Of a stretch of DNA of 64,000 nucleotides, positions 2,426-33,866 are shown in pieces. The DNA is from Pelagibacteraceae bacterium GOM-A1 (GTDB lineage: Bacteria > Pseudomonadota > Alphaproteobacteria > Pelagibacterales > Pelagibacteraceae), in the NCBI GenBank assembly GCA_001704065.1, contig LHBX01000057.1, positions 3,634 through 67,633 of the forward strand, in the 5' to 3' direction. The translations under genes were made by a program, and so were the position numbers. Every line of letters begins with the position of its first letter. Position 1 is the first letter of the stretch. The notes beneath the pieces were generated by a model, which did not search any database, was not told the DNA's origin, and was given only the letters and a program-made list of their open reading frames with translations.

Positions 2426-2430
2426 TAAGC

Positions 2431-3321
2431 TTAATTAGCTGGTAACAAATTTTTTGATTTAGCAGAGTTCAGCATATGTTTTTGAAGTTTTTCAAATGCT
2501 TTATTTTCAATTTGCCTTATTCTCTCTCTACTTATTTTGAATTTTTTACTTAAATCTTCTAAAGTTATTGGATCATCTGTTAATCTTCTCGAGTAAAGTA
2601 TTTCTTTTTCTCTTTCATTTAAAATTTTAATAGAATCTTGAAGAAGATCTTTTCGTTGTTCCATTTCTTCATTTTGTGCAAATTTAAGTTCTTGATCCAT
2701 TTCATTGTCTACAACCCAATCTTGCCATTCATCACCATCTTCTCCAATAGGTGCATTTAATGACTGCTCTTTTCCTGAAAGCCTTCTATTCATAGATACA
2801 ACTTCTTGTTCACTAACATCTAATCTGTTTGCTATATCTTTTACGTGTTCATCACGTAAGTCACCCTCAGTTCTAGGTGCAATTTGATTTTTTAACTTCT
2901 TCAAGTTGAAAAAAAGCTTTTTCTGAGCTGTTGTGGTTCCAATTTTTACTAAGCTCCATGATCTTAGAATATATTCTTGAATAGAAGCTTTAATCCACCA
3001 CATTGCATAAGTTGCAAGTCTAAACCCTTTTTCAGGTTCAAATTTTTTAACAGCTTGCATTAAACCTACGTTACCTTCTGAAATCATTTCATTAAGAGGC
3101 AAACCATAGCCTTTGTAACCCATTGCTATTTTAGCAACTAGTCTTAAATGACTTGTAACAAGTTTTTCAGCTGATTTAACATTTCCTGTAGTTTGCCAGT
3201 TTTTAGCTAGCATGTATTCTTCTTCTGCATCTAGCATAGGAAATTTTTTTATTTGAGCTAGATATGCCGCTAAGCCACCTTCATTTGAAAGTGTAGGCAA
3301 GTTATATGTATTATTACTCAT
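2431..3321 (-). CDS. rpoH: RNA polymerase sigma-32 factor
   Basis: LVTSHLRLV, EGNVGLMQAVKKF, RLATYAMWWI, RpoH box QKKLFFNLKK, SRERIRQIE; lies downstream of an RluA-family gene as in many Alphaproteobacteria. Confidence 0.96.
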   Translation of the reverse strand: MSNNTYNLPTLSNEGGLAAYLAQIKKFPMLDAEEEYMLAKNWQTTGNVKSAEKLVTSHLRLVAKIAMGYKGYGLPLNEMISEGNVGLMQAVKKFEPEKGFRLATYAMWWIKASIQEYILRSWSLVKIGTTTAQKKLFFNLKKLKNQIAPRTEGDLRDEHVKDIANRLDVSEQEVVSMNRRLSGKEQSLNAPIGEDGDEWQDWVVDNEMDQELKFAQNEEMEQRKDLLQDSIKILNEREKEILYSRRLTDDPITLEDLSKKFKISRERIRQIENKAFEKLQKHMLNSAKSKNLLPAN

Positions 3322-3364
3322 TGGAAGTATTTATGTAATAGAGAAATTTTTTTTTACAATCGTT

Positions 3365-4345
3365 TTATTTACTTAATTTTCTTAGTTTTTTTAGGATATC
3401 ACCTAACTCCTTTGGGATATTTGATGAAAATTCTAATCTTTCCTCTGTCCTTGGATGGTCAAAACCTAGCTGTTTTGCATGCAAAAATTGTCTATCAAGA
3501 TTTAAAATTTTATTATTAAGATCTTCATCAATGTTTTTAAATTTTTTAAATTTCTTTTTATATTTTTTATCTCCAAGAATATTATTACCTTTGTATGACA
3601 TATGAACTCTTATTTGATGAGTTCTTCCAGTTTCTAATTTACATTGTATAAAACTAAATGTTGGAACTTTATCATTCTCAAAAAGCTCTAATGTTTCATA
3701 ATGTGTAATTGCTTTTTTACCTTTGGTTGATGATACTTCCATGATCTGTCTATTTTTCGAACTTCTGGTTATGAATGTTTCAATTGTTCCTTTTTGAGGC
3801 CTTAATTTTCCCCAAATTAAAGTTTGATAAACTCTAGTTATAGAATGTTCAGAGAATTGAAGAGATAATTTTTCATGAGTTGAGTTATTTTTTGCTATTA
3901 CAATTAATCCAGAAGTATCTTTATCAATTCTATGAACTATACCAGGTCTCAGTTCATCTCCAATATCAGATAAATTTTTGCTATCATAATTCATTAACGC
4001 ATTAACTATCGTATTATCATAATTACCAGCACCAGGATGCATTGAAATTCCAGAAGGCTTGTCAATTACGATTAAGTCTTCATCTTCATAAATTATATTT
4101 AATTTAAAATCGTATGGTTTTAAGCTTTGTTTCTTAGGTTCAACAATTTCAAGTTCAATTTTGTCATTTAATTTAGTCTTAATTGAAGGGTCTAAGACTA
4201 TTCTCTCATTAATTTTTAATTTACTGTCTAGTATTAAATTTTTTACTCTAGTTCTGCTTAAGCTTTTATCAAGATTTGCTAATATTGTGTCTACTCTCTT
4301 GTTACTATCATCCTCTTTAATAATAAAATTGATGATATTTTTCAT
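3365..4345 (-). CDS. rluD: RluA/RluD family 23S rRNA pseudouridine synthase
   Basis: N-terminal S4-like domain, IVHRIDKDTSG catalytic Asp motif, TGRTHQIRVH, GD..Y, QFLHA. Confidence 0.9.
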   Translation of the reverse strand: MKNIINFIIKEDDSNKRVDTILANLDKSLSRTRVKNLILDSKLKINERIVLDPSIKTKLNDKIELEIVEPKKQSLKPYDFKLNIIYEDEDLIVIDKPSGISMHPGAGNYDNTIVNALMNYDSKNLSDIGDELRPGIVHRIDKDTSGLIVIAKNNSTHEKLSLQFSEHSITRVYQTLIWGKLRPQKGTIETFITRSSKNRQIMEVSSTKGKKAITHYETLELFENDKVPTFSFIQCKLETGRTHQIRVHMSYKGNNILGDKKYKKKFKKFKNIDEDLNNKILNLDRQFLHAKQLGFDHPRTEERLEFSSNIPKELGDILKKLRKLSK

Positions 4346-4368
4346 AAATTATTATATTAAATTATTAT

Positions 4369-4445
4369 GCGTTCGTAGCTCAACTGGATAGAGCGCCAGA
4401 TTTCGGCTCTGGAGGTTCAGGGTTCGACTCCTTGCGGGCGCACCA
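4369..4445 (+). tRNA. tRNA-Arg(UCG)
   Basis: Cloverleaf: acceptor GCGTTCG/CGGGCGC, D-loop with A20 (Arg identity), anticodon stem CCAGA/TCTGG with loop TT-TCG-GC (anticodon 4403-4405), GGTTCGACTCC T-arm, encoded CCA. Confidence 0.95.
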
Positions 4446-19198: not shown

Positions 19199-20035
19199 TT
19201 AGATTTCTAGTTTTAAGTCTAATGCATTAATTGAGTGAGTTAAAGATCCTATGGAAATCCTATCTACACCAGTAGAGGAAACATTTTTTACATTCTTTAA
19301 GTTAATTCCTCCTGATGCTTCAGTTTCATAAAATTTCCTAGACATTTTGACTGCTTTTTCTAAATTTTTTGAACTCATATTATCTAATAAAATCCTATCA
19401 AATTTCAGACCCAATATTCTCTTTAACTGAGATAAATTATCAACCTCAACTGTAATTTTTTTTTCTCCCTTTTTTTTGATGGCTCTTTTAATTAAATTTT
19501 CAAAATTTTTTTCAGAGCTTATATGGTTATCTTTTATTAAGTATTCATCACTTAGATTAAATCTGTGATTTGTTCCACCACCTAATTTTACAGCATATTT
19601 TTGAATCACTCTAAGATTTGGGATCGTTTTTCTTGTGCAGCATATTTTAGTTTTTTTTCTAACTTTTTTTACAAACATATTTGTTTTCGTTGCTATTCCA
19701 GAAATATGGGAAACAAAGTTTAATGCTACTCTCTCGCCGGTTAGAATATTTTTTAGGTTACCATCAATAGTCGCAATTACTTCGCCTTTTCTTATTCGAG
19801 ATCCATCTTTTTTTTTATTTTTAAAATTTATTTTTTTATCTACTAATTTAAAAGTCTCTTTAGCAAAATCTATCCCACCTAAAATTCCATTTTGGTTACA
19901 TATCATTTTAACTTTTTTTTTAATGTTTTTGTCAATTAATTCTGAAGTAATATCGCCTGATGGATATAAGTCTTCATTCAAAGCTAATTTACATGATGAT
20001 TTTATAAAATTTTTACTTAATTGAATTTTAGACAC
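19199..20035 (-). CDS. nadC: nicotinate-nucleotide pyrophosphorylase (quinolinate phosphoribosyltransferase)
   Basis: GDITS, ERVALN, SGIAT, TRKT.P, NHRFNLSD, KDNH, EVD, LLDNM, EASGGI. Confidence 0.96.
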   Translation of the reverse strand: MSKIQLSKNFIKSSCKLALNEDLYPSGDITSELIDKNIKKKVKMICNQNGILGGIDFAKETFKLVDKKINFKNKKKDGSRIRKGEVIATIDGNLKNILTGERVALNFVSHISGIATKTNMFVKKVRKKTKICCTRKTIPNLRVIQKYAVKLGGGTNHRFNLSDEYLIKDNHISSEKNFENLIKRAIKKKGEKKITVEVDNLSQLKRILGLKFDRILLDNMSSKNLEKAVKMSRKFYETEASGGINLKNVKNVSSTGVDRISIGSLTHSINALDLKLEI

Positions 20036-20040
20036 AGATT

Positions 20041-21030
20041 TTATCTGCCTATTTCTGCCATTCTCTCTACAGATTTTCTTGCTTTTTTGATTGTTTCATT
20101 GTCCATTATTAATTCATTAGTTTCATTTTCTAAACAATCTAATATTTTAGGCAAAGTTATTCTTTTCATATGAGGACAAAGATTACATGGTCTAATAAAC
20201 TCAACATTTGGATTATCAATTTGTACATTATCGCTCATTGAGCATTCCGTAACCATCATGACTTTTTCTGGTTGATTATCTCTTACATATTTAATCATTC
20301 CACTTGTAGAACCTGCAAAATCAGATGCTTGTATCACATCAGGTGGACATTCTGGATGGGCTATTATTTTTATACCTGGATTAGCTTTTCTAATATCATT
20401 AATTTCTTGATCATTGAATTGTTCATGCACTTCACAAGTTCCCTTCCAAGAAATAATTTCTATATCAGTTTGTGATGCCACATATTTAGCTAAAAAATCA
20501 TCGGGTAAAAATATTACTTTTTTTACTCCTAATGATTCAACAATTTTTACTGCATTTGCAGATGTACAGCAAACGTCAGTTTCAGCTTTAACATCAGCAG
20601 ATGTATTTACATACGAGACAACTGGAACTCCAGGGTATTTTTTTTTGAGATTTCTTACATCATCACCTGTTATAGACGATGAGAGTGAACAACCTGCTTT
20701 CATATCTGGTAATAAAACTTTTTTTTCTGGACTCATTAATTTTGCAGTTTCAGCCATAAAATGAACTCCACACATGACAATTATGTCTGCTTTTGTTTTT
20801 GCAGCCTCTACTGCTAAAGCTAAAGAATCTGCAGAAAAGTCTGAAATGCCGTGATAAATTTCTGGTGTTTGATAATTGTGTGCAAGAATTACCGCATTCT
20901 TCTCTTTCTTTAATTTATTAATTTTATAAATATAAGGTGCATGTGTAGCCCATTCTATCTCAGGAATTTTTTTTGATACTTTGTTATAAATTGAGCTTGT
21001 TGCTTTTTTTATTTCACTAGTAAATTCCAT
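20041..21030 (-). CDS. nadA: quinolinate synthase
   Basis: LAHNYQ, CGVHFMAETAK, AGCSL, YVNTSA, HPEC, CNLCPHM (three Fe-S cysteines present). Confidence 0.97.
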   Translation of the reverse strand: MEFTSEIKKATSSIYNKVSKKIPEIEWATHAPYIYKINKLKKEKNAVILAHNYQTPEIYHGISDFSADSLALAVEAAKTKADIIVMCGVHFMAETAKLMSPEKKVLLPDMKAGCSLSSSITGDDVRNLKKKYPGVPVVSYVNTSADVKAETDVCCTSANAVKIVESLGVKKVIFLPDDFLAKYVASQTDIEIISWKGTCEVHEQFNDQEINDIRKANPGIKIIAHPECPPDVIQASDFAGSTSGMIKYVRDNQPEKVMMVTECSMSDNVQIDNPNVEFIRPCNLCPHMKRITLPKILDCLENETNELIMDNETIKKARKSVERMAEIGR

Positions 21031-21493: not shown

Positions 21494-22441
21494 ATGAAGT
21501 TAACAGACGAACAAATAAAAGAAATAAAAGACCAGCAATCTCAGCAAAATTCAACAAAAAGAGTAACAGCTCCAGAACTTGAAAAAATTCTATACGATGC
21601 AATTCCAATATTAGACCACGGTTTTATAAGAGTGGTCGATTATATGGGTGATGATACCTCCGTAGTTCAATCAGCTAGAGTTTCTTATGGAAAAGGCACG
21701 AAAAAAGTTTCAACAGATTCTGGTTTAATAAAATATTTAATGAGGCACTGGCATAGTACTCCTTTTGAGATGTGTGAAATAAAATATCATGTAAAGCTAC
21801 CCATATTTATTGCAAGACAATGGATTAGACATAGAACAGCAAATGTAAATGAATATTCTGCAAGATACTCGATTTTAGATAAAGAATTTTATCTACCAGA
21901 GCCACAACATCTAGCTGCACAATCACGAAGCAATAGACAGGGTAGAGGAGATATTTTAGATGGAGAAAAAGCAAAAAAAGTTTTGAATTTATTAAAAGGA
22001 GATGCTGAACAAACTTATAATAATTATGAAACTATGCTTAATGAAAGATATGACGGCTCAACTATAGATGAAAATGCTGTAGGTTTAGCAAGAGAGCTTG
22101 CTAGAATGAACTTAACATTAAATACTTATACGCAATGGTATTGGAAAACAGATTTATTAAATCTGATGAATTTTTTGAGGCTTAGAGCAGATCATCATGC
22201 ACAATATGAAATAAGAGCTTACGCTGATGCTATGCTCGATACTGTAAAAAAATGGGTGCCAATAACTTATGAAGCTTTCATGGATTATAGAATTGGAGGA
22301 ACAGAAGTCTCAGCAAAAGGAAAAAATATAATTAAAAAATTAATAAAGGGAGAAAACATTTCTATTGAAGATTCTGGTTTATCAAAAAGAGAGTGGAATG
22401 AATTAATGGAAAGTTTCGATTTGAAAAATAAAATTATTTAA
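21494..22441 (+). CDS. thyX: FAD-dependent thymidylate synthase
   Basis: [42 protein letters not shown]. Confidence 0.97.
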
Positions 22442-22445
22442 TTTA

Positions 22446-23126
22446 TTAATTTTTTAAGTAATTTTTATTTTTATATATTTGGTCCTCATAATTCCATAAT
22501 GGATCTTTAAATTTCTTTATTAATTTAAAATCATTTTTTATTAGAACTTTTTGGATAGCAGGAAATGAATATCCTTTATATAAATATTTATCTAGTTGTT
22601 TTTCAATTATAATAAATCCAATTTTTTTAAAATTTTTTTTCGAAATACCTTTTAAAACATCTATCTCAAAACCTTCCGTATCAATCTTAAGTATATCAAT
22701 TTTCTTTATTCGATATTTATTAAAAAAAAAATTTATTGGATAGATATTTACTTTTACTTTTTTTATTTTTTCTTTAAGAAAATGAAAGAAGAAAATATTT
22801 CTCAAATTTTTTTTTAAGGTAGGTTTTTGAAAACTCGAACTGCTTGCATTTGGCATAATAAAAAAAGTCTTTTTTTCAATTTTTTTACCAATACCAACAC
22901 GGAAATACTTATTTTTACTTTTTTTTTCAAGTCTTTTGAAATAATTTATGTTTGGTTCAAAAAAAAAAACTTTACTTTGTTTAAAGCTATTACCAAATTG
23001 TCCTTTGAATGCCCCAATATCAAAAACTATATCTGCCTTACACTTATCTTTAATAAATTTTGTTACTTGACTCATATGAAATAAAAATGTGTAGCTAAAA
23101 ATAAAGGTAAGAAAACGGGCTATCAT
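22446..23126 (-). CDS. FkbM family SAM-dependent methyltransferase
   Basis: VFDIGAFKG, FEPN, IDILKIDTEGFE. Confidence 0.88.
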   Translation of the reverse strand: MIARFLTFIFSYTFLFHMSQVTKFIKDKCKADIVFDIGAFKGQFGNSFKQSKVFFFEPNINYFKRLEKKSKNKYFRVGIGKKIEKKTFFIMPNASSSSFQKPTLKKNLRNIFFFHFLKEKIKKVKVNIYPINFFFNKYRIKKIDILKIDTEGFEIDVLKGISKKNFKKIGFIIIEKQLDKYLYKGYSFPAIQKVLIKNDFKLIKKFKDPLWNYEDQIYKNKNYLKN

Positions 23127-23275
23127 AAATATTAATACATATAAATAATTAAGTTATTTATGGGTTAACGAATATCACCCTTATTTAAAAAAAAAAGTTA
23201 TAAATATTTGTAAATTATCTTTTGTTTAATATGATAATAATTGTAATTTGTTTAGATTATTTTATTTAGTATAAA

Positions 23276-24460
23276 TTGAAGAATGTAATTATAACTGATG
23301 GTTTTTGGAGGAAATCTCTAAGTTGCGTTAGATCTCTTGGAAAAGCAGGATATAACGTTACAGTTTTGGGTGACTCTGTTTTTACAACCGCTTTTTGGAG
23401 TGGATTTACAAACAATAGAGTTTTAAGTCCATCGTCACAGGAAAGTCTATCTGATTTTAACAGCTTTGTAACAAAATATATTGAAAAAAAAAATTTTGAG
23501 TTAGGAGAAAAAATAATATTGATACCAAGTGAAGACAGTACCATTAATTGGTTATCAGCACGCAGAAGAAAAATTTCTAAACACGCAAAATTTCTAATTC
23601 CAGACCAAAATTCTCTTAAACTTGCTCAGTCTAAAGAGTCCACTTTGAGAGCGGCTAACAAGATTGGAATTGATATTCCAGAGACATACTTTTTTAAAAA
23701 TTACAATCAATTCAAAAAAAAAATCCATTTTTTATCGAGAAAAAATTTATTAAAAAAATATATAATCAAACCAGATGTGGGTTCAGGTTCTATTGGAATT
23801 ATTTACCCAAAAGAAAATAATATTAAAAATTTAAGCTTTCACTGGAAAAAATTTGGTAAATTATTAATTCAAAAAAAAATTAATTCAAAAGGAAATGGCA
23901 TTGGTGTTTCAATGATATTTGATAAAAATTCAAGGTGTATTGCCAACTTTTCTCATAAACGAATTAAAGAATATCCATTGAAAGGTGGACCAAGCACAAT
24001 TCGTAAAAGCATAAAAAACAAAAATTTACAAAATTTATCAAAAAAACTTTTACAAAAACTTAATTGGAAAGGAGTTGCTATGGTTGAGTGGAAAATAGAT
24101 ATAGATGAAAAAAAAATAAAATTATTAGAGATTAACCCAAGGTTTTGGGGAAGTCTTGAATTAGCTGTTAGATCAGGTGTAAATTTTCCACTATTATATG
24201 CACATCTCTCCAGTGGACGAAAAGTAAAAGTAATCAAAAGATATAAACCAGGTGTAATATGTAGATGGATATTTCCAGGTGACATACTTAGATTTATAAA
24301 TGACAAAAATAATAAAGAAAATTTGTGGAATTTTATAAAATCAATATTTAAAGAAGGTGAAGAGTATGATTCAAAAGATATTAGGGGTTTCATATCCTCT
24401 ATATTTTGTAATTTATTTTCAGTATTTAAACCCAAATATTGGAAATACCTGACAAGATAA
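23276..24460 (+). CDS. ATP-grasp carboxylate-amine ligase (polysaccharide-cluster type)
   Basis: IIKP..GSGSIGI, LIQKKI, GVAMVEWK, LLEINPRFWGS; TTG start. Confidence 0.85.
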   Translation: MKNVIITDGFWRKSLSCVRSLGKAGYNVTVLGDSVFTTAFWSGFTNNRVLSPSSQESLSDFNSFVTKYIEKKNFELGEKIILIPSEDSTINWLSARRRKISKHAKFLIPDQNSLKLAQSKESTLRAANKIGIDIPETYFFKNYNQFKKKIHFLSRKNLLKKYIIKPDVGSGSIGIIYPKENNIKNLSFHWKKFGKLLIQKKINSKGNGIGVSMIFDKNSRCIANFSHKRIKEYPLKGGPSTIRKSIKNKNLQNLSKKLLQKLNWKGVAMVEWKIDIDEKKIKLLEINPRFWGSLELAVRSGVNFPLLYAHLSSGRKVKVIKRYKPGVICRWIFPGDILRFINDKNNKENLWNFIKSIFKEGEEYDSKDIRGFISSIFCNLFSVFKPKYWKYLTR

Positions 24461-24538
24461 AAATATATATAATAAAATTATCTAGAAACTATTTACTTAG
24501 AAAGTAATGTGATACCTTAAGAAAAAAATTGTATTAAT

Positions 24539-25297
24539 TTGACTGATAATTTAATTTTAATTTTGGCACATCAAGATGATGAAATGTTTATTTTTAATAG
24601 AATACATCATCATAAAAATAAAAAAAAAATTTTTATTTTTTATATGACATCAGGGCTTGATGAAAATTTAAAAAAAGACGAAGTAAATCATCGAAATATT
24701 GAAAGTTTAAAAGTTTTATTAAAAATGGGAGTTTCAAAAAGAAACATTCGATTTATTGGAGGAAAATTATCTATAAAAGTTAACACACTTTACAAGTCTA
24801 TGGAAAAAGCTTTCAATGAGTTATCAAGGGAAGTTAATAAAATTAGAGGCCCAAAAGTAATTATAACTCATGCTTTAGAGGGAGGTCATGAAGATCATGA
24901 TGCATGTTATTATTTAACAAAAAAATTATCATTTAAAAAAAAAGATGTTTTAAAAATTTATCAATTTCCTGCTTATCATGGGAAAAATTTACCTTTCATT
25001 TTTTATAAGGTACAAAGCCCTTTGAAAGAAAATGGTTCAATTAATTCAAAAAAAATATGTCTTTTAAGCCGATTTAAATTTATATATTTATTATTTACTT
25101 ATGTTTCGCAAATCAAAGTTTGGATTGGCTTATATCCATTTATTATTTTAAATTTTTTATTAAAAAGAAATGATAAGCTACAAGAAGTCCCTAAAAATAT
25201 ATTAATAAGAAAACCACATTTAGGGAAGTTATTGTATGAAAAAAGAGGATTTTGCAAATATTTAGTATTTAAAAAATATGTAAAAAAATTTTTATAA
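24539..25297 (+). CDS. PIG-L/LmbE family de-N-acetylase
   Basis: LAHQDDE (variant of PHPDDE) and GGHEDH zinc-binding motifs, R..E helix; TTG start. Confidence 0.8.
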   Translation: MTDNLILILAHQDDEMFIFNRIHHHKNKKKIFIFYMTSGLDENLKKDEVNHRNIESLKVLLKMGVSKRNIRFIGGKLSIKVNTLYKSMEKAFNELSREVNKIRGPKVIITHALEGGHEDHDACYYLTKKLSFKKKDVLKIYQFPAYHGKNLPFIFYKVQSPLKENGSINSKKICLLSRFKFIYLLFTYVSQIKVWIGLYPFIILNFLLKRNDKLQEVPKNILIRKPHLGKLLYEKRGFCKYLVFKKYVKKFL

Positions 25298-25298
25298 A

Positions 25299-26252
25299 AT
25301 GATAGAAAATAAATCTATTTGTATTGTAGTACCGGTATATAATGTTGGAAATAAAATTGTTGATTTTATTTCTTCAATTCCCGACTATGTTGATAAAATA
25401 ATAGTTATAGATGATAAATGTCCGCTTAAAAGTGGTTTAATTTTAAAAAAAAATACACCTGAAAATAAAAAATTAAACATCTTATTTAACGAAAATAATC
25501 TTGGCGTGGGTGGTACTGTTAAAAGAGGTTACAATGAAGCTTTAAAAAGTAATGAGGATATAATTATAAAAATAGATGGTGATGGTCAAATGGATCCTGA
25601 CCAAATACCAATCTTAACAAAATCAATAATTAATGGTTATGATTATTCAAAAGGCAACAGGTTTCTTAACAATACTTATATAAAAAATTATCCATTAGAA
25701 AGGTTTTATGGTAATAAATTTTTGTCTTTATTTTCAAAATTATCTACTGGCTATTGGGATATATTTGATCCAATTAATGGGTTCACAGCAATCAAAAGAG
25801 AAAAACTAAATAATATAAATTTAGATGATATAGATAATGGTTATTTTTTTGAGACAGATATGCTTTTTAATTTATATCTTTTAAAATCAAAAATTAAGGA
25901 TGTGCCAGTAAAAATTAAATATTTTAAAAATCATAGACAGAACTTAAGTATTTTTAGAGAAAGTTTTAATTTTTTTTTTAAAAATCTCCATAGATTATTA
26001 AAGAGAGTAAAAATTTCTTATCTTAGTAATAATTTTGGATTGCCAGGTTTATTATTTTCTATTGGCTCTATCTCTTTGATTTTTACATTATTTTATGGTG
26101 GATTTAATTGGTTTTATTATTCATTTATAAAAGAAACATTTGCTCCAAATGGAGTAATTACTTTTAGCGCCATTTCATTAATTGTTGGATTATTTTCTAT
26201 GTTTATGTTCATGATTATAGATAATAATAATAATCCCAACTTAAAAAAATGA
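25299..26252 (+). CDS. GT2 polyprenol-phosphate glycosyltransferase (DPM1/ArnC-like) with two C-terminal TM helices
   Basis: VVPVYN, VIDD, N.GVG, IDGDGQMDP, KGNRF, D..NGF, Y.FETDML; hydrophobic C-terminus. Confidence 0.85.
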   Translation: MIENKSICIVVPVYNVGNKIVDFISSIPDYVDKIIVIDDKCPLKSGLILKKNTPENKKLNILFNENNLGVGGTVKRGYNEALKSNEDIIIKIDGDGQMDPDQIPILTKSIINGYDYSKGNRFLNNTYIKNYPLERFYGNKFLSLFSKLSTGYWDIFDPINGFTAIKREKLNNINLDDIDNGYFFETDMLFNLYLLKSKIKDVPVKIKYFKNHRQNLSIFRESFNFFFKNLHRLLKRVKISYLSNNFGLPGLLFSIGSISLIFTLFYGGFNWFYYSFIKETFAPNGVITFSAISLIVGLFSMFMFMIIDNNNNPNLKK

Positions 26253-27553
26253 ATAAAAAAAATCTTATTGTTTTCGAAATTAACGAATTTGATTACAAAT
26301 TTTTCATTTATGGTTCTAAAAAATATAAATTTCCGCAAATAAAAAATTTTTTTAAACTTAAAAAGAAAAATACGATTACCAAAGATAATAAGGAAGGATT
26401 AAACTTAGATCCATGGGTACAATGGGTGTCGGCTCATACAGGCAAAGATTCAAATAAACATAAAGTTTTAAGGATCGGGCAAGTTTTAGACAAAGATATA
26501 AGACAAGTATGGGAAAAACTTCCAAACAAGAAAAGAGTTTCAGTATGGGGGCTCTTTAACTCGATTTTAAGAAAAAAAAATAATATTGATTTATTTTATC
26601 CTGATCCTTGGAGTTTTACACAAAAAGCTTATCCAGAAAATCTAAATTCCTTTTTAGCTTTGCCAAGATATTATGCAAAAAATTATCCAAATTTTAATTT
26701 ATCAGATATTTTGAATTGTAGTTTAAAATTATTAAACAAAGTATTATTTTCAGGAATAATTTTTTTTATAATTAAAAATATTATTAGTTTAACATCTATT
26801 TTTTTTCGTTCAGGGTTAAGTTCATTCAATATTTATTTCTTATTTGATCTTTTTTCTTTAATTTTGTTGCGAGAACAACTTAATAAAAATAGATCAGATC
26901 TAGTAATCATTGGTTTAAATTCATTTGCTCACTATCAGCATAATTACTGGAATGAAAAAAAATACGAAAAAATTTATTTTTGGTATTTAAATCAAATGAT
27001 AATTGAAATGAATAAAATTTCTCAAAATTACAATAGCAAAATTGTGTTTAATGGTTTCTCACAAAAAAAAGTCAAAGTAAATTATTATCCTCGCATTATT
27101 GATCAAAAGAAATTTTTTAAAGATCTTAAAATAAATTATATTAGGCATGAAATAAATATGACATATGGAGGTACTATTTATTTTAAAAGTTTAAATGACA
27201 AATATAAAGCAATAAAAATTTTAAAACAAATTGGATATAATAATAAAAGATTGTTTGATGTTTCAGATTTTAATAATGAAAAAAAAATTTTTTATTCAAT
27301 AAACTTTGTTTTTATAAATAAAAAAAATTTTAAAGAGATAAATAAATTACCAAAGAAAAATATCGTAAATGATAAATTTATTTTTAAAAAAATAATCAAA
27401 AACATAAAACTCAATCAATCAACAAGTAGACACTTGCAAAATGGATTAATTTTTTTTAGTTCTGAAATAAAATTAAAAAAAACTTATTTTATAAGAAATT
27501 ATTTTTATAACCAAAAACTATACAATTTAATTTTAGATTATTTTAAAAATTAA
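26249..27553 (+). CDS. uncharacterised alkaline-phosphatase/nucleotide-pyrophosphatase superfamily protein
   Basis: N-terminal LIVFEINE metal-site strand, LDPWVQWVSAHTG (W.S..TG nucleophile region), AHYQH second-metal-like motif. Confidence 0.5.
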   Translation: MNKKNLIVFEINEFDYKFFIYGSKKYKFPQIKNFFKLKKKNTITKDNKEGLNLDPWVQWVSAHTGKDSNKHKVLRIGQVLDKDIRQVWEKLPNKKRVSVWGLFNSILRKKNNIDLFYPDPWSFTQKAYPENLNSFLALPRYYAKNYPNFNLSDILNCSLKLLNKVLFSGIIFFIIKNIISLTSIFFRSGLSSFNIYFLFDLFSLILLREQLNKNRSDLVIIGLNSFAHYQHNYWNEKKYEKIYFWYLNQMIIEMNKISQNYNSKIVFNGFSQKKVKVNYYPRIIDQKKFFKDLKINYIRHEINMTYGGTIYFKSLNDKYKAIKILKQIGYNNKRLFDVSDFNNEKKIFYSINFVFINKKNFKEINKLPKKNIVNDKFIFKKIIKNIKLNQSTSRHLQNGLIFFSSEIKLKKTYFIRNYFYNQKLYNLILDYFKN

Positions 27554-28353
27554 TAAAAATTTATAACTTCGGATTTCCAACTACATTTTTCGTTGATAAA
27601 AACAAAATTTTCTCCATTAATGTATGTCTTGAATTTTAAATTATTTTTTGAAAATGATTGAAATATTTTATTTGTGGCAAACGGGCTATCATTATCTGGA
27701 CATTCAATAATAATCATATTTACACTCTTGATCCATTCAGCTGCACTGTCATCAAATATAACACTCTCTGATCCTTCAATATCAATTTTAAGAATATCAA
27801 TTTTATTAATTTTATGATCATCTATTATATTTTTGATAGTTGTTGTCGGAACTACATCTGATAAACCATTTTTTTTACTTATCTTAAAAGTTTGAGAGCT
27901 CGTCTCAAAATAATTATTTTCAATACTTACTTTATCTACTTTATTCCAAATGGCTTTATTAATTGAAATAATGTTTTTTTTATTTTCAATGTTTTTTAGA
28001 AGAACTTTGTAATTATTTAACTCTGGCTCAACACATATAATTTTAGAATCTGGAAATAATTTATTAAATCTTAAAGTTTCAACACCAATATTTGCACCGA
28101 TATCTAAAATAATTTCTGGCTCTTCTCCAAAAGTATTAATGTTTATTTGTTGATTGTAAAAATGACCAACAACACCATAATCTATTTTGCTTCTCCAATA
28201 GATATCTCCAAATTTCTTTGTTTTTAGACAAGATATTTCATCACTCGGAAAGAATTTTAAAAATAAAATTTTGATAGTGTTTATGAGACCCAAGTTATGG
28301 ATTGATATGGAATATCTTGTAAGTGGTGTTAAAATATTTATTAAAAATTTCAT
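27550..28353 (-). CDS. second FkbM family methyltransferase
   Basis: ILDIGANIGV, CVEP...NY, NKAIW, IDILKIDIEGSE. Confidence 0.9.
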   Translation of the reverse strand: MKFLINILTPLTRYSISIHNLGLINTIKILFLKFFPSDEISCLKTKKFGDIYWRSKIDYGVVGHFYNQQININTFGEEPEIILDIGANIGVETLRFNKLFPDSKIICVEPELNNYKVLLKNIENKKNIISINKAIWNKVDKVSIENNYFETSSQTFKISKKNGLSDVVPTTTIKNIIDDHKINKIDILKIDIEGSESVIFDDSAAEWIKSVNMIIIECPDNDSPFATNKIFQSFSKNNLKFKTYINGENFVFINEKCSWKSEVINFY

Positions 28354-28360
28354 AATTTAT

Positions 28361-30073
28361 TTATTTGATGAACAAATAGTGATCGTTATAAAAAAATAAT
28401 GTTTTAAATTTATTATCCCTATAATAATCTCGCATTTCTTCACCAATTAAATTTTGGCAATAAGAACTTTTTATTAACAAATAATATTTTTCTTCATTCT
28501 TTAAAAGATCTTTGCAATCGTGTTTGACTATTACTCTGTTTTCAATTTTTGGTAGATATCTAAAATCCATTTGATCGGGAATAGATAAAATCTTGAAATT
28601 ATTTTTATCAACATAGTGATAAATTAATGAGTTAAGAACTTTATCTCCTCTCTCATTTTTTTTATTAAGGTTTGAAGAAATCAATCTTTCAGTACTCCTA
28701 TAATTATTTAAAATTAATAGTATTAAAATTATCGAAATAAAACCCAAAAAATTAAAGAAGTAAATTGGATATTTGAAATTATAAATTTTAAATTTATTAA
28801 CAAGTTCATAAACTCCAAAAGAAATATTGATAGCTAGAAATGGAACGATTAATGAAATATGCCTATTATCGTAACCAAAATAAAAGTAATAAAGAGCAAA
28901 AAATGGTAATGAAATAATTAAAAATAATTTTAATGAGTGTTTATTAATTAAACCTAGAAAAATCAAGGCCAGGAAAGGTATCCACATAAAACCAAAAATA
29001 TTCTCAAGTTTTTCTAAAAGTGAACCTTGATTTAAAGATATTATGAAACCTAAATTACTTGTTTGAGTCTTCAGAAATAAAATATTATATGCTTTACTGG
29101 TTATCCAAATAAAAGGACCAAATATTGGTATGATTATAAAAATAGTATTTTTTATAACTTCTCTAAAATTTTTTTTATTTATAAAAAAAAATAAGTAGAA
29201 TATTGGAAAAATAAAACAAATAAAAAAACCAGTTTGTTTAAGAATTGGACTTGAAATAACTATTAATCCAGAAATTATATACTCAAAATAACTCAATTTA
29301 TTTTTATATAAATAAAGTAAGTAAAATACAAAAGCAGTAGAACTAGATGTTAGGAATAATAAAGGTTCATTTAAACCTATATACATCCCATAATTTCTAA
29401 AAATATAAACAAAAACAAATAAAGTAATTAAAAGAGATATTTTAATATAGTTTTGAAACTTGTTAGCTAAAACTGAAGTTCGATAAAAAATAAAAAAAAT
29501 CCAAATTGGATAAATTATCAATATTGCTCTGGTAAAAAATTCTACATCAGTATTATTTATAAATTTATAAACTACCGACATTAGAATAGACATCCCCGGA
29601 GTATAAAATCCAAAGTCCTTAGGGCTGCTATTAAACCAGAAAATACTCCAAGGATTGAAGCTACGTATTGCATCACCAATATGAATTACTTCACCTAAAG
29701 TTTTGAGCCCAAAATAACAAATAAATACAAAAAAAACTAAATTAGCTAAATCTATTAAATTAAATTTAAATGCTATATTATTTTTTAGTTTTATAAAGTT
29801 TTCTAAATGCAGAATTGAATTTCTAAAGTATGTGCTTCTGTATAAATTTAAAAATATAATTATTAGTTCTAGCCCCACCAATATTAAAATACTAGTTTGA
29901 TAATAAATTTTGAAAAAAACAAGCAATGAGACTATGATGGTATTTAGTGTTATACTTAGTGGTAGTGATAATATTATACAGTCAATGAACTTTAATTTTC
30001 GATTAAACGATAATAAAGTAATTCCTGGTAAAAACCAAACTTGTAAAATTCCTAATATTCCAAATAGAAACAT
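28361..30073 (-). CDS. multi-pass membrane protein, probable GT-C fold (ArnT/PMT-like) glycosyltransferase
   Basis: About 12-13 hydrophobic segments, FLPG in TM1, acidic loop motifs GDA and NEP, LKQTG, DNRH before a late TM helix, soluble C-terminal domain. Confidence 0.5.
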   Translation of the reverse strand: MFLFGILGILQVWFLPGITLLSFNRKLKFIDCIILSLPLSITLNTIIVSLLVFFKIYYQTSILILVGLELIIIFLNLYRSTYFRNSILHLENFIKLKNNIAFKFNLIDLANLVFFVFICYFGLKTLGEVIHIGDAIRSFNPWSIFWFNSSPKDFGFYTPGMSILMSVVYKFINNTDVEFFTRAILIIYPIWIFFIFYRTSVLANKFQNYIKISLLITLFVFVYIFRNYGMYIGLNEPLLFLTSSSTAFVFYLLYLYKNKLSYFEYIISGLIVISSPILKQTGFFICFIFPIFYLFFFINKKNFREVIKNTIFIIIPIFGPFIWITSKAYNILFLKTQTSNLGFIISLNQGSLLEKLENIFGFMWIPFLALIFLGLINKHSLKLFLIISLPFFALYYFYFGYDNRHISLIVPFLAINISFGVYELVNKFKIYNFKYPIYFFNFLGFISIILILLILNNYRSTERLISSNLNKKNERGDKVLNSLIYHYVDKNNFKILSIPDQMDFRYLPKIENRVIVKHDCKDLLKNEEKYYLLIKSSYCQNLIGEEMRDYYRDNKFKTLFFYNDHYLFIK

Positions 30074-30118
30074 GTTAATTTATTATCTCTACCTCACTCT
30101 TCTATAAATTAAAGATTT

Positions 30119-31021
30119 TTATTTAGAGTTTAAATAATCTTTTATTTGCAGCTTTAATCCTTCCTCTATTTTTATTGGATTAAAATTAAAATCTTTAATT
30201 GCTTCATCAAAAGTGAATATTTTATCTTCACCTTGTCTTCTGACTTGTGATGAATTTATTGGGAATTTTCCAAAAAACAAAATATTTAAAATTTTAACTA
30301 ATATTGCGCTAAAATTTATCGGTAATCTTATAAATATAATTTTTTTCTTTAAAGTAGCTTCAATAATCTTTAAAATTTTTGAATATTCAATAGAATTTTT
30401 GCCAGCTAAATTATAGCACTTGTTAAATGTAACATTTTTATTTTTAATGACATTAAAGTAAGATTTGGATAAATCATTTACATATATTGGTTGTAATAAA
30501 TTTTTCCCATTTCCAAATATTGGAAAAATCTTATATTTATCTAAGTACTTAATTAATCTAGAAATATTAATATCTCTTTTGTTACCATAAATCATTGTTG
30601 GACGAAGTATAGTTATATTTTTGTTTTTTTTTAAAATATCTTTCTCAATATTAATTCTATTTAAAATAAATTTTGATTTATTTTTTGAGAAGATCATTGT
30701 AGAGTGAACTAAAATAAACCATTTAACTTTTTGTTTTGATCCAAATTCAACAATTTTTGGACTATTTTCCATATTAGCTAAATTTAATACAGTATCAATG
30801 TTATCAAAACATTTTTCCAAAAAGTTAGTATCATTAATATCACCATTTAATATTTTAAAATTTAATCTAAATTGATTGAAATATTTATTTTTACTTTTAT
30901 CTCTAGATACAACAGTAATTTCTCCTTCAAATTTTTCTTTTTCTAATATTTTTAAAAAATAATTTGCTGTATTTCCTCTCGCCCCAAAAATTATAAGTTT
31001 TTCAAAATTTTGAAGTAACAT
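30119..31021 (-). CDS. NAD-dependent epimerase/dehydratase-like (atypical SDR)
   Basis: IIFGARGNTA Rossmann motif, ILRPTMIYG, IFGNG..LLQPIYV.DL, YNLAG. Confidence 0.82.
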   Translation of the reverse strand: MLLQNFEKLIIFGARGNTANYFLKILEKEKFEGEITVVSRDKSKNKYFNQFRLNFKILNGDINDTNFLEKCFDNIDTVLNLANMENSPKIVEFGSKQKVKWFILVHSTMIFSKNKSKFILNRINIEKDILKKNKNITILRPTMIYGNKRDINISRLIKYLDKYKIFPIFGNGKNLLQPIYVNDLSKSYFNVIKNKNVTFNKCYNLAGKNSIEYSKILKIIEATLKKKIIFIRLPINFSAILVKILNILFFGKFPINSSQVRRQGEDKIFTFDEAIKDFNFNPIKIEEGLKLQIKDYLNSK

Positions 31022-31849
31022 TTAAACTAAAAATTTTTTTTTAACTTTCTTTGCAAAATCTAAATAAATATTTGATATTTCATGTTCTGGATTGCTCTCA
31101 ACTATCGGTCGTCCTAAATCTCCTTGCTTTCCAACTTCTGGATCAATTGGTATTTCACCTAGAAAATCTTTTTTAAAATCTTCAGCAGTCTTTTTGACAC
31201 CACCTTCACCAAAAATTGCATATTTTTTTCCATCATCACCTACAAAGTGACTCATATTATCTATAAGACCGAGTATCTTTACTTTAAGTTTATCAAACAT
31301 TCTAATTCCTCTCTTTACGTCCTGTAAGGCTATCTCTTGCGGCGTAGATATAATAATCACCCCATCCATATTTATCTCTTGTGCAAAAGTTAGTTGTGTG
31401 TCGCCAGTTCCAGGAGGCATATCAACAATTAAAAAATCCAAATTTTCCCATAAAACTTTTTGTGTAAAAGTTTTTATAGCGGATATCACCATAGGACCCC
31501 TCCAAATCATTGGAGTTTGTTCATCTGTTAAAAAACCAATTGACATACACTGAATTCCATATTTTATGATTGGCTTTAATTTTTTCCCATCACTTTCAGG
31601 TTTGTCATTTATTGAGAATAATTTTGGAAGCGATGGTCCATATATATCTGCGTCAAGCAATCCGACATTTAAATCTATTTTTTTTAATGCCAAAGCAAGA
31701 TTCGAGGCAAATGTTGACTTTCCAACTCCTCCCTTTGCACTTGAGATTGCAATTGTAAACTTTGTTCCAATAATCGGGTTCCTTCTAAAGGTTTTTGGCT
31801 CAGTTCTTGCCTTTGTTGTGTCACTTAAACCTACTTTTTTTTCGTCCAT
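31022..31849 (-). CDS. mrp: Mrp/ApbC/NBP35 family P-loop ATPase, short form lacking the CxxC motif
   Basis: SSAKGGVGKST, DADIYGPS.P, WRGPM, DMPPGTGD, TPQ..A..D, DNMS, GEIP. Confidence 0.93.
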   Translation of the reverse strand: MDEKKVGLSDTTKARTEPKTFRRNPIIGTKFTIAISSAKGGVGKSTFASNLALALKKIDLNVGLLDADIYGPSLPKLFSINDKPESDGKKLKPIIKYGIQCMSIGFLTDEQTPMIWRGPMVISAIKTFTQKVLWENLDFLIVDMPPGTGDTQLTFAQEINMDGVIIISTPQEIALQDVKRGIRMFDKLKVKILGLIDNMSHFVGDDGKKYAIFGEGGVKKTAEDFKKDFLGEIPIDPEVGKQGDLGRPIVESNPEHEISNIYLDFAKKVKKKFLV

Positions 31850-31903: not shown

Positions 31904-32995
31904 ATGAGTGATTTTAGAAATCAAAGCCCGTGGGGAACACCTCCAGGAGGAGGTGGTAGTGGAAATGGTGGATTTAGAAAAGGTCCTACTCCCCCAAATA
32001 TTGATGAAATTATAAGTAAATTACAATCAATAATAAATAGATTTTTAGGCGGAGGTAAAGGTGGTGCTAAGCCAATAATAATTGGTCTAATAATCCTTTT
32101 AATTGTTTGGACTTTAAGTGGTCTTTATAGAGTTTTACCTGATGAACAAGGCGTTGTATTGAGATTTGGAAAATTTGTTAAAACTACGCAGCCTGGATTA
32201 AATTATCATCTTCCTTTTCCAATTGAAAATGTGTTAACCCCAAAAGTTACAAAAGTTAATCGAATGGATATTGGATTTAGATCGGAGAGAGACAGTGGAT
32301 TTTCATCAGGTGGAGTTGCAGATGTACCAGAAGAAAGTTTAATGTTAACTGGTGATGAAAATATAGTTAATATTGATTTTTCTGTTTTTTGGGTAATCAA
32401 AGATGCGGGTAATTTTTTATTTAAAATTCAAGATCCTGAAGGAACGGTTAAGGCAGCTGCAGAAACAGCGATGAGAGAGGTTATTGCTCGATCTGATATT
32501 CAACCAATTCTTACTGAAGGTAGATCGGTTATAGAGGCCGATACTCAAGAAATAATTCAGGAAATTTTAGACGAATACACAAGTGGGATTCAAATCACAC
32601 AAGTTCAAACTCAAAAAGCCGATCCACCAGACCAAGTTATTGATGCATTTAGAGATGTACAGGCAGCTAGAGCGGATATGGAAAGATCTAAAAATGAGGC
32701 AGAAGCATATGCTAATGATGTAATTCCAAGAGCACGAGGAGAAGCAGCAAAAATTCTACAAGCAGCAGAGGCTTATAAAAAAGAAGTTGTTGCTAAGGCA
32801 GAAGGAGAAGCAAGTAGATTTTTATCAATATATAATGAGTATGCAAAAGCCAAAAAAGTAACTCAAGAAAGAATGTATCTTGAGACAATGGAAGAAGTAT
32901 TAGCTGATATCAATAAAATAATAATCGACAAAAACTCAGGTGAAGGTGTAGTACCATACCTTCCATTACAAGAACTTAAGACAGGAACCAATTAA
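31904..32995 (+). CDS. hflK: FtsH modulator HflK
   Basis: PWG/Gly-rich N-terminus with PP.IDE, TM helix, EQGVVLRFG, MLTGDENIV, A..AEAYK, RMYLETME. Confidence 0.97.
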   Translation: MSDFRNQSPWGTPPGGGGSGNGGFRKGPTPPNIDEIISKLQSIINRFLGGGKGGAKPIIIGLIILLIVWTLSGLYRVLPDEQGVVLRFGKFVKTTQPGLNYHLPFPIENVLTPKVTKVNRMDIGFRSERDSGFSSGGVADVPEESLMLTGDENIVNIDFSVFWVIKDAGNFLFKIQDPEGTVKAAAETAMREVIARSDIQPILTEGRSVIEADTQEIIQEILDEYTSGIQITQVQTQKADPPDQVIDAFRDVQAARADMERSKNEAEAYANDVIPRARGEAAKILQAAEAYKKEVVAKAEGEASRFLSIYNEYAKAKKVTQERMYLETMEEVLADINKIIIDKNSGEGVVPYLPLQELKTGTN

Positions 32996-32996
32996 A

Positions 32997-33866
32997 ATGA
33001 AAGCTGGAAAATTTTTATTACCAATAATTATACTAATTGCTGCAACAATATACTTTTCTGTTTTTATTGTTAAAGAGGTTAATCAAGCTATAGTCCTTCA
33101 ATTTGGAGATCCCAAAAGAATTATATCCAAACCTGGAATAAATTTTAAAATTCCATTCATACAAAACGTTGTATTTTTGGATAAAAGAATTTTAAATCTT
33201 GATACTCCACCGGAAGAGGTAATTGCATCAGATCAAAAAAGACTTATTGTCGACGCTTTTGCGAGATTTCAAATTATTGATCCACTTAAATTTTATATAT
33301 CAGTTGGAAATGAAAGAGTTGCAAGATCAAGATTGGCAACAATTATAAACTCTAGAATAAGAAACGTGCTTGGTCAGCAAGAACTTCAAACACTTTTGTC
33401 AGAAGATAGAACAAAACAAATGTCTTTAATTCAGGAAGGTGTAAATAATGAAGCTGAAAATTTTGGTATTAGTATAGTAGACGTAAGAATTAAAAGAGCA
33501 GATCTTCCACAAGCTAACAGTGATGCAATTTTTAGAAGAATGCAAACCGAAAGAGAGAGAGAAGCAAAAGAATTTAGAGCAAAAGGTGCAGAGATGGCAG
33601 TAACAATTACCTCAACTGCTGATAAAGAAGTTACCGTTATACTTGCAGACGCACAAAAAAAATCTGAGATTATGAAGGGTGAGGGTGATGGTCTTAAAAA
33701 TAAGATTTTTGCTGATGCCTTCGGACAAGATCCTGAATTTTTTGCATTTTATAGAGCTATGCAGGCATACCAAAAAGCTTTAATTGGCGGTGAAACTTCA
33801 ATGATACTTTCACCAGATAGTGAATTTTTTAAATTTTTCGGAAATATCGATCAAAAAGTAGAGTAA
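32997..33866 (+). CDS. hflC: FtsH modulator HflC
   Basis: SPFH domain, DVRIKRADLP, RMQTERERE, FFAFYRAM.AY. Confidence 0.97.
   Translation: MKAGKFLLPIIILIAATIYFSVFIVKEVNQAIVLQFGDPKRIISKPGINFKIPFIQNVVFLDKRILNLDTPPEEVIASDQKRLIVDAFARFQIIDPLKFYISVGNERVARSRLATIINSRIRNVLGQQELQTLLSEDRTKQMSLIQEGVNNEAENFGISIVDVRIKRADLPQANSDAIFRRMQTEREREAKEFRAKGAEMAVTITSTADKEVTVILADAQKKSEIMKGEGDGLKNKIFADAFGQDPEFFAFYRAMQAYQKALIGGETSMILSPDSEFFKFFGNIDQKVE

Follow-up and report, generated by a model that had tools for sequence, protein, structure and literature searches.

The closest described relatives of the protein considered here are the ApbC/Mrp proteins of Salmonella and E. coli together with mitochondrial Ind1/NUBPL and cytosolic Nbp35 and Cfd1 (6g2g), all of which contain the same P-loop domain. 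ApbC combines this domain with an N-terminal domain of ~130 amino acids and with a CxxC motif (C-S-N-C) that ligates a bridging [4Fe-4S] cluster, and in Ind1/NUBPL, Nbp35 and Cfd1 the CxxC is kept as well and is required for cluster binding. The CxxC after ENMS has been listed as the second signature of the family (PMC6345978), and reviews still list the motif (PMC6345978; PMC8593673). The plastid protein HCF101, a class I member of the FSC-NTPases (the [4Fe-4S]-cluster P-loop NTPase group), has been described as "remarkably lacking" the CxxC, and the eubacterial class I members form subclasses according to the presence of DUF59 and the positions of their cysteines (PMC2805927). In addition, B. 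subtilis SalA is an Mrp-family ATPase acting outside iron-sulfur (Fe-S) metabolism as a transcription regulator, which binds DNA upstream of scoC, and as an activator of PtkA (PMC5035731). For the ATPase-type HypB of Thermococcus kodakarensis (Tk HypB), no nickel-binding site has been identified, and it is the ATP-dependent binding of HypA by the HypB dimer that creates a high-affinity Ni site (PMC7055735). Here we analyzed an mrp-like gene on a 64,000-nucleotide stretch of DNA (the window) from contig LHBX01000057.1 of the SAR11 member Pelagibacteraceae bacterium GOM-A1, whose product is hereafter called SAR11 Mrp. The literature searched yielded neither a paper on SAR11 Mrp nor one characterising a Cys-free Mrp from bacteria. 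Our analysis showed that SAR11 Mrp is an ordinary member of a common, little-studied Cys-free variant of the family. With a probability of roughly one half, we propose that this Pelagibacterales ortholog of Mrp/ApbC/NBP35, in its Cys-free-hairpin form, would be an ATP-driven dimer switch working with a separate cluster carrier.

The gene (31022..31849, minus strand) encodes a deviant-Walker-A ATPase of the Mrp/NBP35 family with 275 amino acids and the P-loop domain only. PF10609 (NUBPL/Mrp iron-transfer P-loop NTPase), the sole Pfam domain, matched residues 30-269 (E 2.3e-93) with 312.6 bits relative to a curated cut-off of 27.1, covering positions 3-245 of the 246 in the profile. The best PDB sequence match was E. 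coli ApbC (8zkc, E 6.5e-69), with 46% identity over the P-loop domain, followed by the Archaeoglobus fulgidus Mrp homologs 3kb1 and 2ph1, Cfd1 6g2g and Thermococcus HypB 3vx3. ApbC and SAR11 Mrp have in common the deviant Walker A, switch I, switch II and the WRGP motif. Invariance of the motif residues was judged in a family alignment of 100 sequences: K39, G40, K44 and S45 were invariant in the deviant Walker A KGGVGKST (K39-T46, including the signature Lys39; 31712..31735, minus strand), D66, D68 and P72 in switch I DADIYGPS (D66-S73; 31631..31654, minus strand), and D143, P145, P146 and G147 in Walker B/switch II DMPPGTGD (D143-D150; 31400..31423, minus strand). The GKGGhGK[ST] form of Walker A with its signature lysine and the two switches, which characterize the family, are therefore all present.

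The loop that bears the CxxC in ApbC, Nbp35, Cfd1 and Ind1 corresponds to residues 197-214 of SAR11 Mrp (DNMSHFVGDDGKKYAIFG; 31208..31261, minus strand), is free of cysteine and reads FVGDDGKKYAIFG where ApbC has its CxxC. A sequence-only reading of this DNA had taken GDDG (G204-D205-D206-G207; 31229..31240, minus strand; tccatcatcacc on the window strand and ggtgatgatgga as reverse complement) for the replacement of the motif. HMMER alignments with the four CxxC-bearing homologs 8zkc, 3kb1, 2ph1 and 6g2g all placed the two cluster-ligating cysteines opposite V203 and D206; in the case of ApbC 8zkc, ENMSVHICSNCGHH paired with DNMS-HFVGDDGKK. The loop is Cys-free as had been said, but the register was one residue off, and among the loop aspartates only D206 occupies a Cys position. 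At the level of aligned sequences, it was confirmed that SAR11 Mrp is truly without the two cysteines holding the cluster in its studied relatives, and the CxxC after ENMS, the second family signature, is missing. The four alignments and the PF10609 match bore out both the assignment to the Mrp/ApbC/NBP35 family and the loss of the CxxC. The same reading was also right that DUF59 is missing, that the three ATPase motifs are intact and that the protein has one cysteine.

The Cys-free loop is a conserved feature of the clade. The pattern [DE]NMS.F..[DE]D.K.Y.IFG, without cysteine, was kept in 117 of the 120 closest database homologs (at least 82% identity). An alignment of 121 SAR11 sequences showed D206, K208, Y210, I212, F213 and G214 to be invariant, with D or E at position 205 and with I, V or T at position 203, the first Cys position. 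Orthologs were identified in 80 Pelagibacteraceae genomes at 79-95% identity, with the open reading frame (ORF) intact in every one, and a distant Pelagibacterales lineage at 54% identity (P0123, loci L161-L164) encodes a protein of 276 amino acids that lacks the CxxC and reads SGDGKEH or SDDGTEH instead. Against the 80 SAR11 orthologs, the median ratio of nonsynonymous to synonymous substitution rates (dN/dS) of mrp was 0.083, and the gene is clearly under strong purifying selection. It evolves several-fold faster than its neighbours hflK (dN/dS 0.015) and hflC (0.010), and the median amino-acid identity is 91% for mrp versus 99% for hflK/hflC. In two marine metatranscriptomes, contig depth was 0-15 for mrp and hundreds to thousands for hflKC, with DNA depths ~3-fold apart; such contig depths say little about expression levels, and mrp is covered by only a few low-depth contigs. 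The faster evolution and the low depth could be taken to favour an artefact, a strain-specific mutation or a decaying gene, a reading to which we assign practically no weight. The loop change can be neither chance nor sequencing error, since it is conserved in the 117 homologs as well as in the distant Pelagibacterales, and the ORF intact in 80 of 80 genomes, the low dN/dS and the existence of transcript contigs all contradict decay. The conservation data thus refuted this explanation, and the ortholog alignment excluded the strain-specific or sequencing artefact that the sequence-only reading had left room for.

No Pfam match to DUF59 (PF01883) was detected in SAR11 Mrp. The place of the ~100-130-amino-acid DUF59-type domain of ApbC is occupied by a short basic N-terminal tail (residues 1-28; 31766..31849, minus strand), which is predicted to be disordered (predicted local distance difference test, pLDDT, 48-56), and the alignment with ApbC starts only at ApbC residue 131. 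Because no more than 54 nt separate the mrp start codon from the divergent hflK, there is no space for an overlooked N-terminal domain. The sole cysteine, C101 (31547..31549, minus strand), lies in core strand 99-103. It was considered as a ligand and judged unlikely to be one, given its core-strand position and a column that is V, L, C, I or A among diverse family members, though it is invariant in the 121 SAR11 sequences.

Structure prediction and column-wise comparison were informative about what the loop might do. The AlphaFold2 model, built from an alignment of 100 sequences, had a mean pLDDT of 91.2 and a predicted template modelling score of 0.89, and Foldseek ranked ApbC 8zkc first (TMq 0.85), then 2ph1, Cfd1 6g2g, 3kb1 and Tk HypB, so that the model has the fold of ApbC, Cfd1 and archaeal Mrp. 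According to DSSP, the loop is modelled as a beta-hairpin with strands 201-203 and 209-211 and a GDDGK turn (block pLDDT 94). The solved homologs carry a CxxC "knuckle" on the dimer axis, and the SAR11 model has at that site a plain hairpin that turns at D-G and contains an invariant K-x-Y. When CxxC and Cys-free members were compared, strong divergence was confined to loop positions 204-210, the Jensen-Shannon divergence between the two loop groups was at most 0.25 at all positions outside the loop, and no remote site outside the loop was found to co-vary with the loss of the CxxC. This restriction indicates that the remainder of the protein is under equal constraints in both groups. Among the Cys-free members, position 206 is D in 72% and position 210 is Y in 56%, and the recurring signature consists of a turn, either D-G or D-T-G, with K-x-Y after it.

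These results bear on two explanations in which the aspartates are ligands. First, SAR11 Mrp might still be an Fe-S carrier, with a bridging cluster held by Asp205 and Asp206 of each monomer, perhaps together with a small thiol such as glutathione or with cysteines of a partner. The invariance of D206 and the restriction of position 205 to D or E agree with this idea, as do the prevalence of D at 206 among Cys-free members and the location of the loop at the CxxC site of the solved homologs. Ligation of single Fe sites by Asp or Glu is known in Fe-S proteins; we know of no precedent for a [4Fe-4S] cluster held by carboxylates alone. HCF101 does hold a [4Fe-4S] cluster without a CxxC (PMC2805927), but it relies on other cysteines, one of them in DUF59, a domain absent from SAR11 Mrp. 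Furthermore, the residue at the first Cys position is hydrophobic and varies among sequences, and the loops of other Cys-free lineages (APDTGKRY, TPAELPDNKY and LLPDGxKDY) offer no matching pair of ligands. D-G is a classic tight-turn sequence, and a D-G turn in the modelled hairpin would be a more economical explanation for the aspartates than a metal site. We consider the Asp-ligated cluster quite improbable. Second, the Asp-rich loop might bind another metal ion (Fe2+, Mn2+, Mg2+ or Zn2+) and the protein be a metallochaperone. Two adjacent acidic residues of each monomer would lie at the presumed two-fold axis, and metallochaperones do exist among the related SIMIBI NTPases, a class of P-loop NTPases whose name derives from SRP, MinD and BioD. 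However, the Cys-free lineages do not share the acidic motif as a set of ligands, the variable position 203 and the modelled D-G turn weigh against this metal as they do against a cluster, and the nearest metallochaperone homolog, Tk HypB, has itself no identified nickel site; the chance of such a metallochaperone appears slim. The metal site that the sequence-only reading had suggested for the Asp pair is accordingly not favoured, with one Asp at a Cys position, I, V or T at the other and a hairpin turn in the model.

In order to place the SAR11 loop within the family, SAR11 Mrp was scored against one representative for each 50%-identity cluster of ~15 billion proteins. Among the best 150 clusters, 100 had the CxxC, 45 had a Cys-free loop and five retained one Cys; the motif therefore marks a subgroup and not the whole Pfam family. 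The N-terminal extension was absent as well in 10 of 39 tabulated Cys-free proteins, and several Cys-free members (e.g., P0125, P0137, P0171, P0205 and P0239) have no cysteine in the entire protein. Bdellovibrionota Mrp (L168-L184, L186) keeps the N-terminal domain and has the loop GDDGK[KQ]Y.IFG as in SAR11; in L186, a metagenome-assembled genome of Oligoflexia, the loop is identical to that of SAR11 through GDDGKKYAIFGEG at an overall identity of only ~46%. The loop type is TPAELPDNKYYIFG in Bacteroidota, LLPDGxKDYIFG in Chlorobi and MPDGSRVQIFG in one Anaerolineae genome. All sampled Bacteroidota loci but one were Cys-free, as was every Chlorobi and Bdellovibrionota locus having a readable loop. 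P0127 (SDDGVKNYVFG), considered as a Firmicutes or SalA type, was wrongly placed there, its UniRef name being that of an OCS116-cluster bacterium. P0122, a protein of 1334 amino acids that ranked second among the representatives (E 8.8e-92), has two Mrp-like modules with Cys-free loops in both (ESPNGKQYRLFG and APDDGKRYDLFG).

The two loop states are intermingled in Alphaproteobacteria. Of 80 alphaproteobacterial orthologs, mostly from Hyphomicrobiales, 36 had APDTGxRYDIFG and 44 had CPxCG. The APDTG group includes Rhizobium, Sinorhizobium, Mesorhizobium, Brucella, Ochrobactrum, Pannonibacter, Aureimonas and Phreatobacter, and the CPxCG group includes Hoeflea, Roseibium, Bosea, Rhodopseudomonas and Azospirillum. 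With the loop masked, the Cys-free protein of Phreatobacter is 78.5% identical to that of Bosea, which has the CxxC (L144 compared with L143), versus only 68% to those of Rhizobium and Mesorhizobium, and the Cys-free protein of Pannonibacter is 80% identical to that of Roseibium, again with the CxxC (L089 compared with L115), versus 74-76% to other Cys-free orthologs. The loop is APDTGKRYDIFGH in both Pannonibacter and Phreatobacter, CPGCGGRHDIFGH in Roseibium and CPECGHRSDIFAH in Bosea. Since near-identical orthologs hold either state, the Cys-free state has evolved on more than one occasion, each time with the sequence APDTG, suggesting either convergence towards a single structural solution or an exchanged loop segment. 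Fitch parsimony on a neighbour-joining tree counted ~36 changes of loop state in 177 sequences, and at least seven in the 80 alphaproteobacterial orthologs; these trees are rough, and only the Phreatobacter/Bosea and Pannonibacter/Roseibium pairs rest on direct comparison of identities. Among the nearest neighbours of the SAR11 clade outside Pelagibacterales in the rough tree are P0247 (FFCDECGKEHKIFG, with the full CxxC) and P0198 (FVCDAGKKYEIFG, which retains the first Cys and is shorter by one residue); the two look like intermediates between CxxC and GDDGKKY. Judging from all sequences compared, the Cys-free form occurs widely in the Mrp family and has evolved there repeatedly, and it is not an adaptation specific to SAR11. 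Soil rhizobia are without the motif and marine Roseibium and Hoeflea possess it, so the loss shows no tie to marine iron limitation. The view that the loop is a striking trait of an iron-limited marine lineage, put forward from the sequence alone, is not supported. The possibility that Cys-less Mrp forms were already common and characterised, also raised there, holds as to their frequency and holds in part as to their characterization, by way of HCF101 (PMC2805927).

The neighbourhood of mrp in other phyla suggested a functional context. In 14 Bacteroidota loci (L165, L190-L192, L195, L197-L200 and L202-L206; ~4065-4375 in most), the Cys-free mrp has a PF01106 NifU-domain gene downstream, which follows it directly in 13 loci and at a distance of ~1 kb in L205. 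The encoded proteins are 77-94 amino acids long, have a C-x-x-C of their own and matched PF01106 at E 1e-24 to 1e-27. Overlaps of 1-4 nt between the two ORFs are frequent, and in several loci, e.g., L202, L203 and L204, the mrp stop overlaps the start of the NifU gene. Three Chlorobi loci (L187, L189 and L193) have the same NifU-domain gene adjacent to mrp in convergent orientation, and L188, the sole CxxC-type locus among the Bacteroidota loci sampled, is without the adjacent gene. This linkage suggests that Cys-free Mrp stays in Fe-S trafficking, the cluster-binding cysteines being supplied by a separate carrier.

We therefore propose for SAR11 Mrp an ATP-driven switch between partners. SAR11 Mrp has preserved the motifs of the ATP-sandwich dimer (signature Lys39, Walker A, switch I and switch II), and its homodimer should be unable to hold a bridging [4Fe-4S] cluster by cysteines. 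SAR11 Mrp would dimerise on ATP and thereby bind and release partner proteins in the maturation of Fe-S proteins; the partner might be a separate carrier (Nfu or an A-type protein) or an apo-client, and the cluster would be held by the partner and not by Mrp. Tk HypB, which acts through ATP-dependent binding of HypA, is a solved precedent for such a division of labour between ATPase and metal carrier. Several points weigh against our proposal. In the SAR11 loci examined, no Nfu, DUF59 or other carrier gene was linked to mrp, the conserved neighbour hflKC carries no information on Fe-S, and the Nfu linkage, seen only in Bacteroidota and Chlorobi loci, may not transfer to SAR11. In the literature searched, no experiment concerned a bacterial Mrp that is both Cys-free and DUF59-free. 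In addition, the invariant D206, aligned with a Cys and presumably located on the dimer axis, is a possible metal or cluster ligand, and plant HCF101 binds [4Fe-4S] without a CxxC, though through other cysteines (PMC2805927).

The absence of linked Fe-S genes and the conserved hflKC neighbour would also fit an ATPase repurposed outside Fe-S metabolism, either as a regulator like SalA or as an ATPase of the MinD/ParA type with a role in positioning or at the membrane. SalA demonstrates that a regulatory role is possible in the Mrp family (PMC5035731). Moreover, SAR11 Mrp scored 281.7 bits with the NCBIfam ApbC equivalog NF008669, below its cut-off of 348, the match covering positions 101-352 of 369. 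At the C-terminus, residues 257-275 (31022..31081) are predicted to form a basic helix ending AKKVKKKFLV, which recalls the membrane-targeting helix of MinD. Nevertheless, the MinD models TIGR01968 and TIGR01969 gave scores far under their cut-offs (41.4 vs 212.9 bits and 70.4 vs 201.75 bits), the family-specific positions outside the loop are kept as in CxxC forms, the loop type switches between orthologs 78-80% identical without further divergence, and the Cys-free form of Bacteroidota remains coupled to the gene of an Nfu carrier. We regard the repurposing as unlikely.

Other named classes did not accommodate the protein either. With the MrpORP model NF041136, which requires a C-terminal Di-Nase domain, the score was 267.5 bits relative to a cut-off of 450 and the match stopped at position 248 of 365. 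The HCF101 architecture (DUF59, P-loop and DUF971) was not found, SAR11 Mrp having the P-loop domain alone, and identity to the ATPase-type HypB was 28-30%, far below that to ApbC. Among the genes annotated around mrp (~9.9-38.2 kb of the window), there were no hyp or hydrogenase genes.

As to the SAR11 neighbourhood itself, hflK and hflC (SPFH/Band 7 by Pfam; 31904..33866, plus strand) are divergent from mrp and form its conserved neighbour: in 78 of 80 SAR11 loci, mrp has hflK, alone or with hflC, as its neighbour, and the same holds for the distant Pelagibacterales loci L161-L166. On the other side, an epimerase/NmrA-like gene identified by Pfam (30119..31021, minus strand) has its ATG directly after the mrp stop; an operon of the two was ruled out, with this gene downstream of mrp in only one of the 80 SAR11 loci. 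It belongs to a strain-variable island of 8.6 kb (22446..31021) between thyX (21494..22441) and mrp, which contains two FkbM methyltransferases, an ATP-grasp protein, a PIG-L deacetylase, a GT2 glycosyltransferase and the epimerase-like gene, as well as two ORFs without Pfam match, one of 434 amino acids and one encoding a multi-pass membrane protein of 570 amino acids. The two island genes next to mrp were shared with only one of the 80 SAR11 genomes (L004), and metagenome contig depth fell ~20-100-fold, from ~1000-3500 over mrp to 5-90 over the island. When all six-frame ORFs of the 64-kb window were searched with phmmer, neither a second Mrp nor a DUF59 ORF nor an Nfu gene came up. The genes nadA (quinolinate synthase) and nadC lie at 19199..21030, ~10 kb from mrp and beyond the variable island. 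Quinolinate synthase is a [4Fe-4S] enzyme, and nadA is a possible candidate for an Fe-S client, though unlinked to mrp.

For SAR11, the consequence of these findings is small, as mrp gives no evidence of an iron-sparing adaptation. For the family, about one third of the nearest Mrp/ApbC clusters are without a motif that reviews treat as its signature, and so are many model rhizobia; for the Cys-free members, an automatically assigned name like "iron-sulfur cluster carrier protein" is therefore unproven. Because the Cys-free loop is common and near-identical orthologs exist in both states, the conserved core function may need no cluster of its own. SAR11 Mrp is a minimal natural example, with the P-loop domain only, one core-strand Cys and strong purifying selection. 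As a tentative generalization, which we hold to be possible and somewhat short of probable, Cys-free single-domain Mrp proteins might be a cluster-free class of ATP-driven adaptors, in which the conserved D-G/K-x-Y hairpin takes the place of the bridging cluster at the dimer axis and clusters are passed between separate carriers (Nfu or A-type) and clients. If so, the CxxC and the APDTG or GDDG loops would be interchangeable and repeatedly re-evolved states of one machine, and the textbook picture of Mrp as a cluster scaffold or carrier would cover only part of the family.

Compared with the systems described so far, SAR11 Mrp has neither the N-terminal domain nor the CxxC of ApbC. It shares the absence of an N-terminal domain with Cfd1, which keeps the cysteines. 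HCF101 has retained DUF59 and DUF971 and binds [4Fe-4S] through Cys128 (in DUF59), Cys347 and Cys419, whereas SAR11 Mrp is without these domains. Unlike for SalA, no DNA-binding or kinase context was seen for the SAR11 gene. The Mrp proteins of Rhizobiales (APDTG), Bdellovibrionota (GDDGK), Bacteroidota and Chlorobi (PAELPDNKY and LPDG) have likewise lost the CxxC and share the K-x-Y-x-IFG signature with SAR11, but most of them have an N-terminal domain. The best mechanistic analogue is Tk HypB (3vx3, 5aun), which matched SAR11 Mrp at E 1.4e-27 and in which the CxxC loop is wholly absent: it is an Mrp/MinD-family ATPase without this loop, and its partner HypA is the real metallochaperone. The two differ in that the loop is deleted in Tk HypB, which serves the maturation of [NiFe]-hydrogenase, and replaced by a hairpin in SAR11 Mrp.

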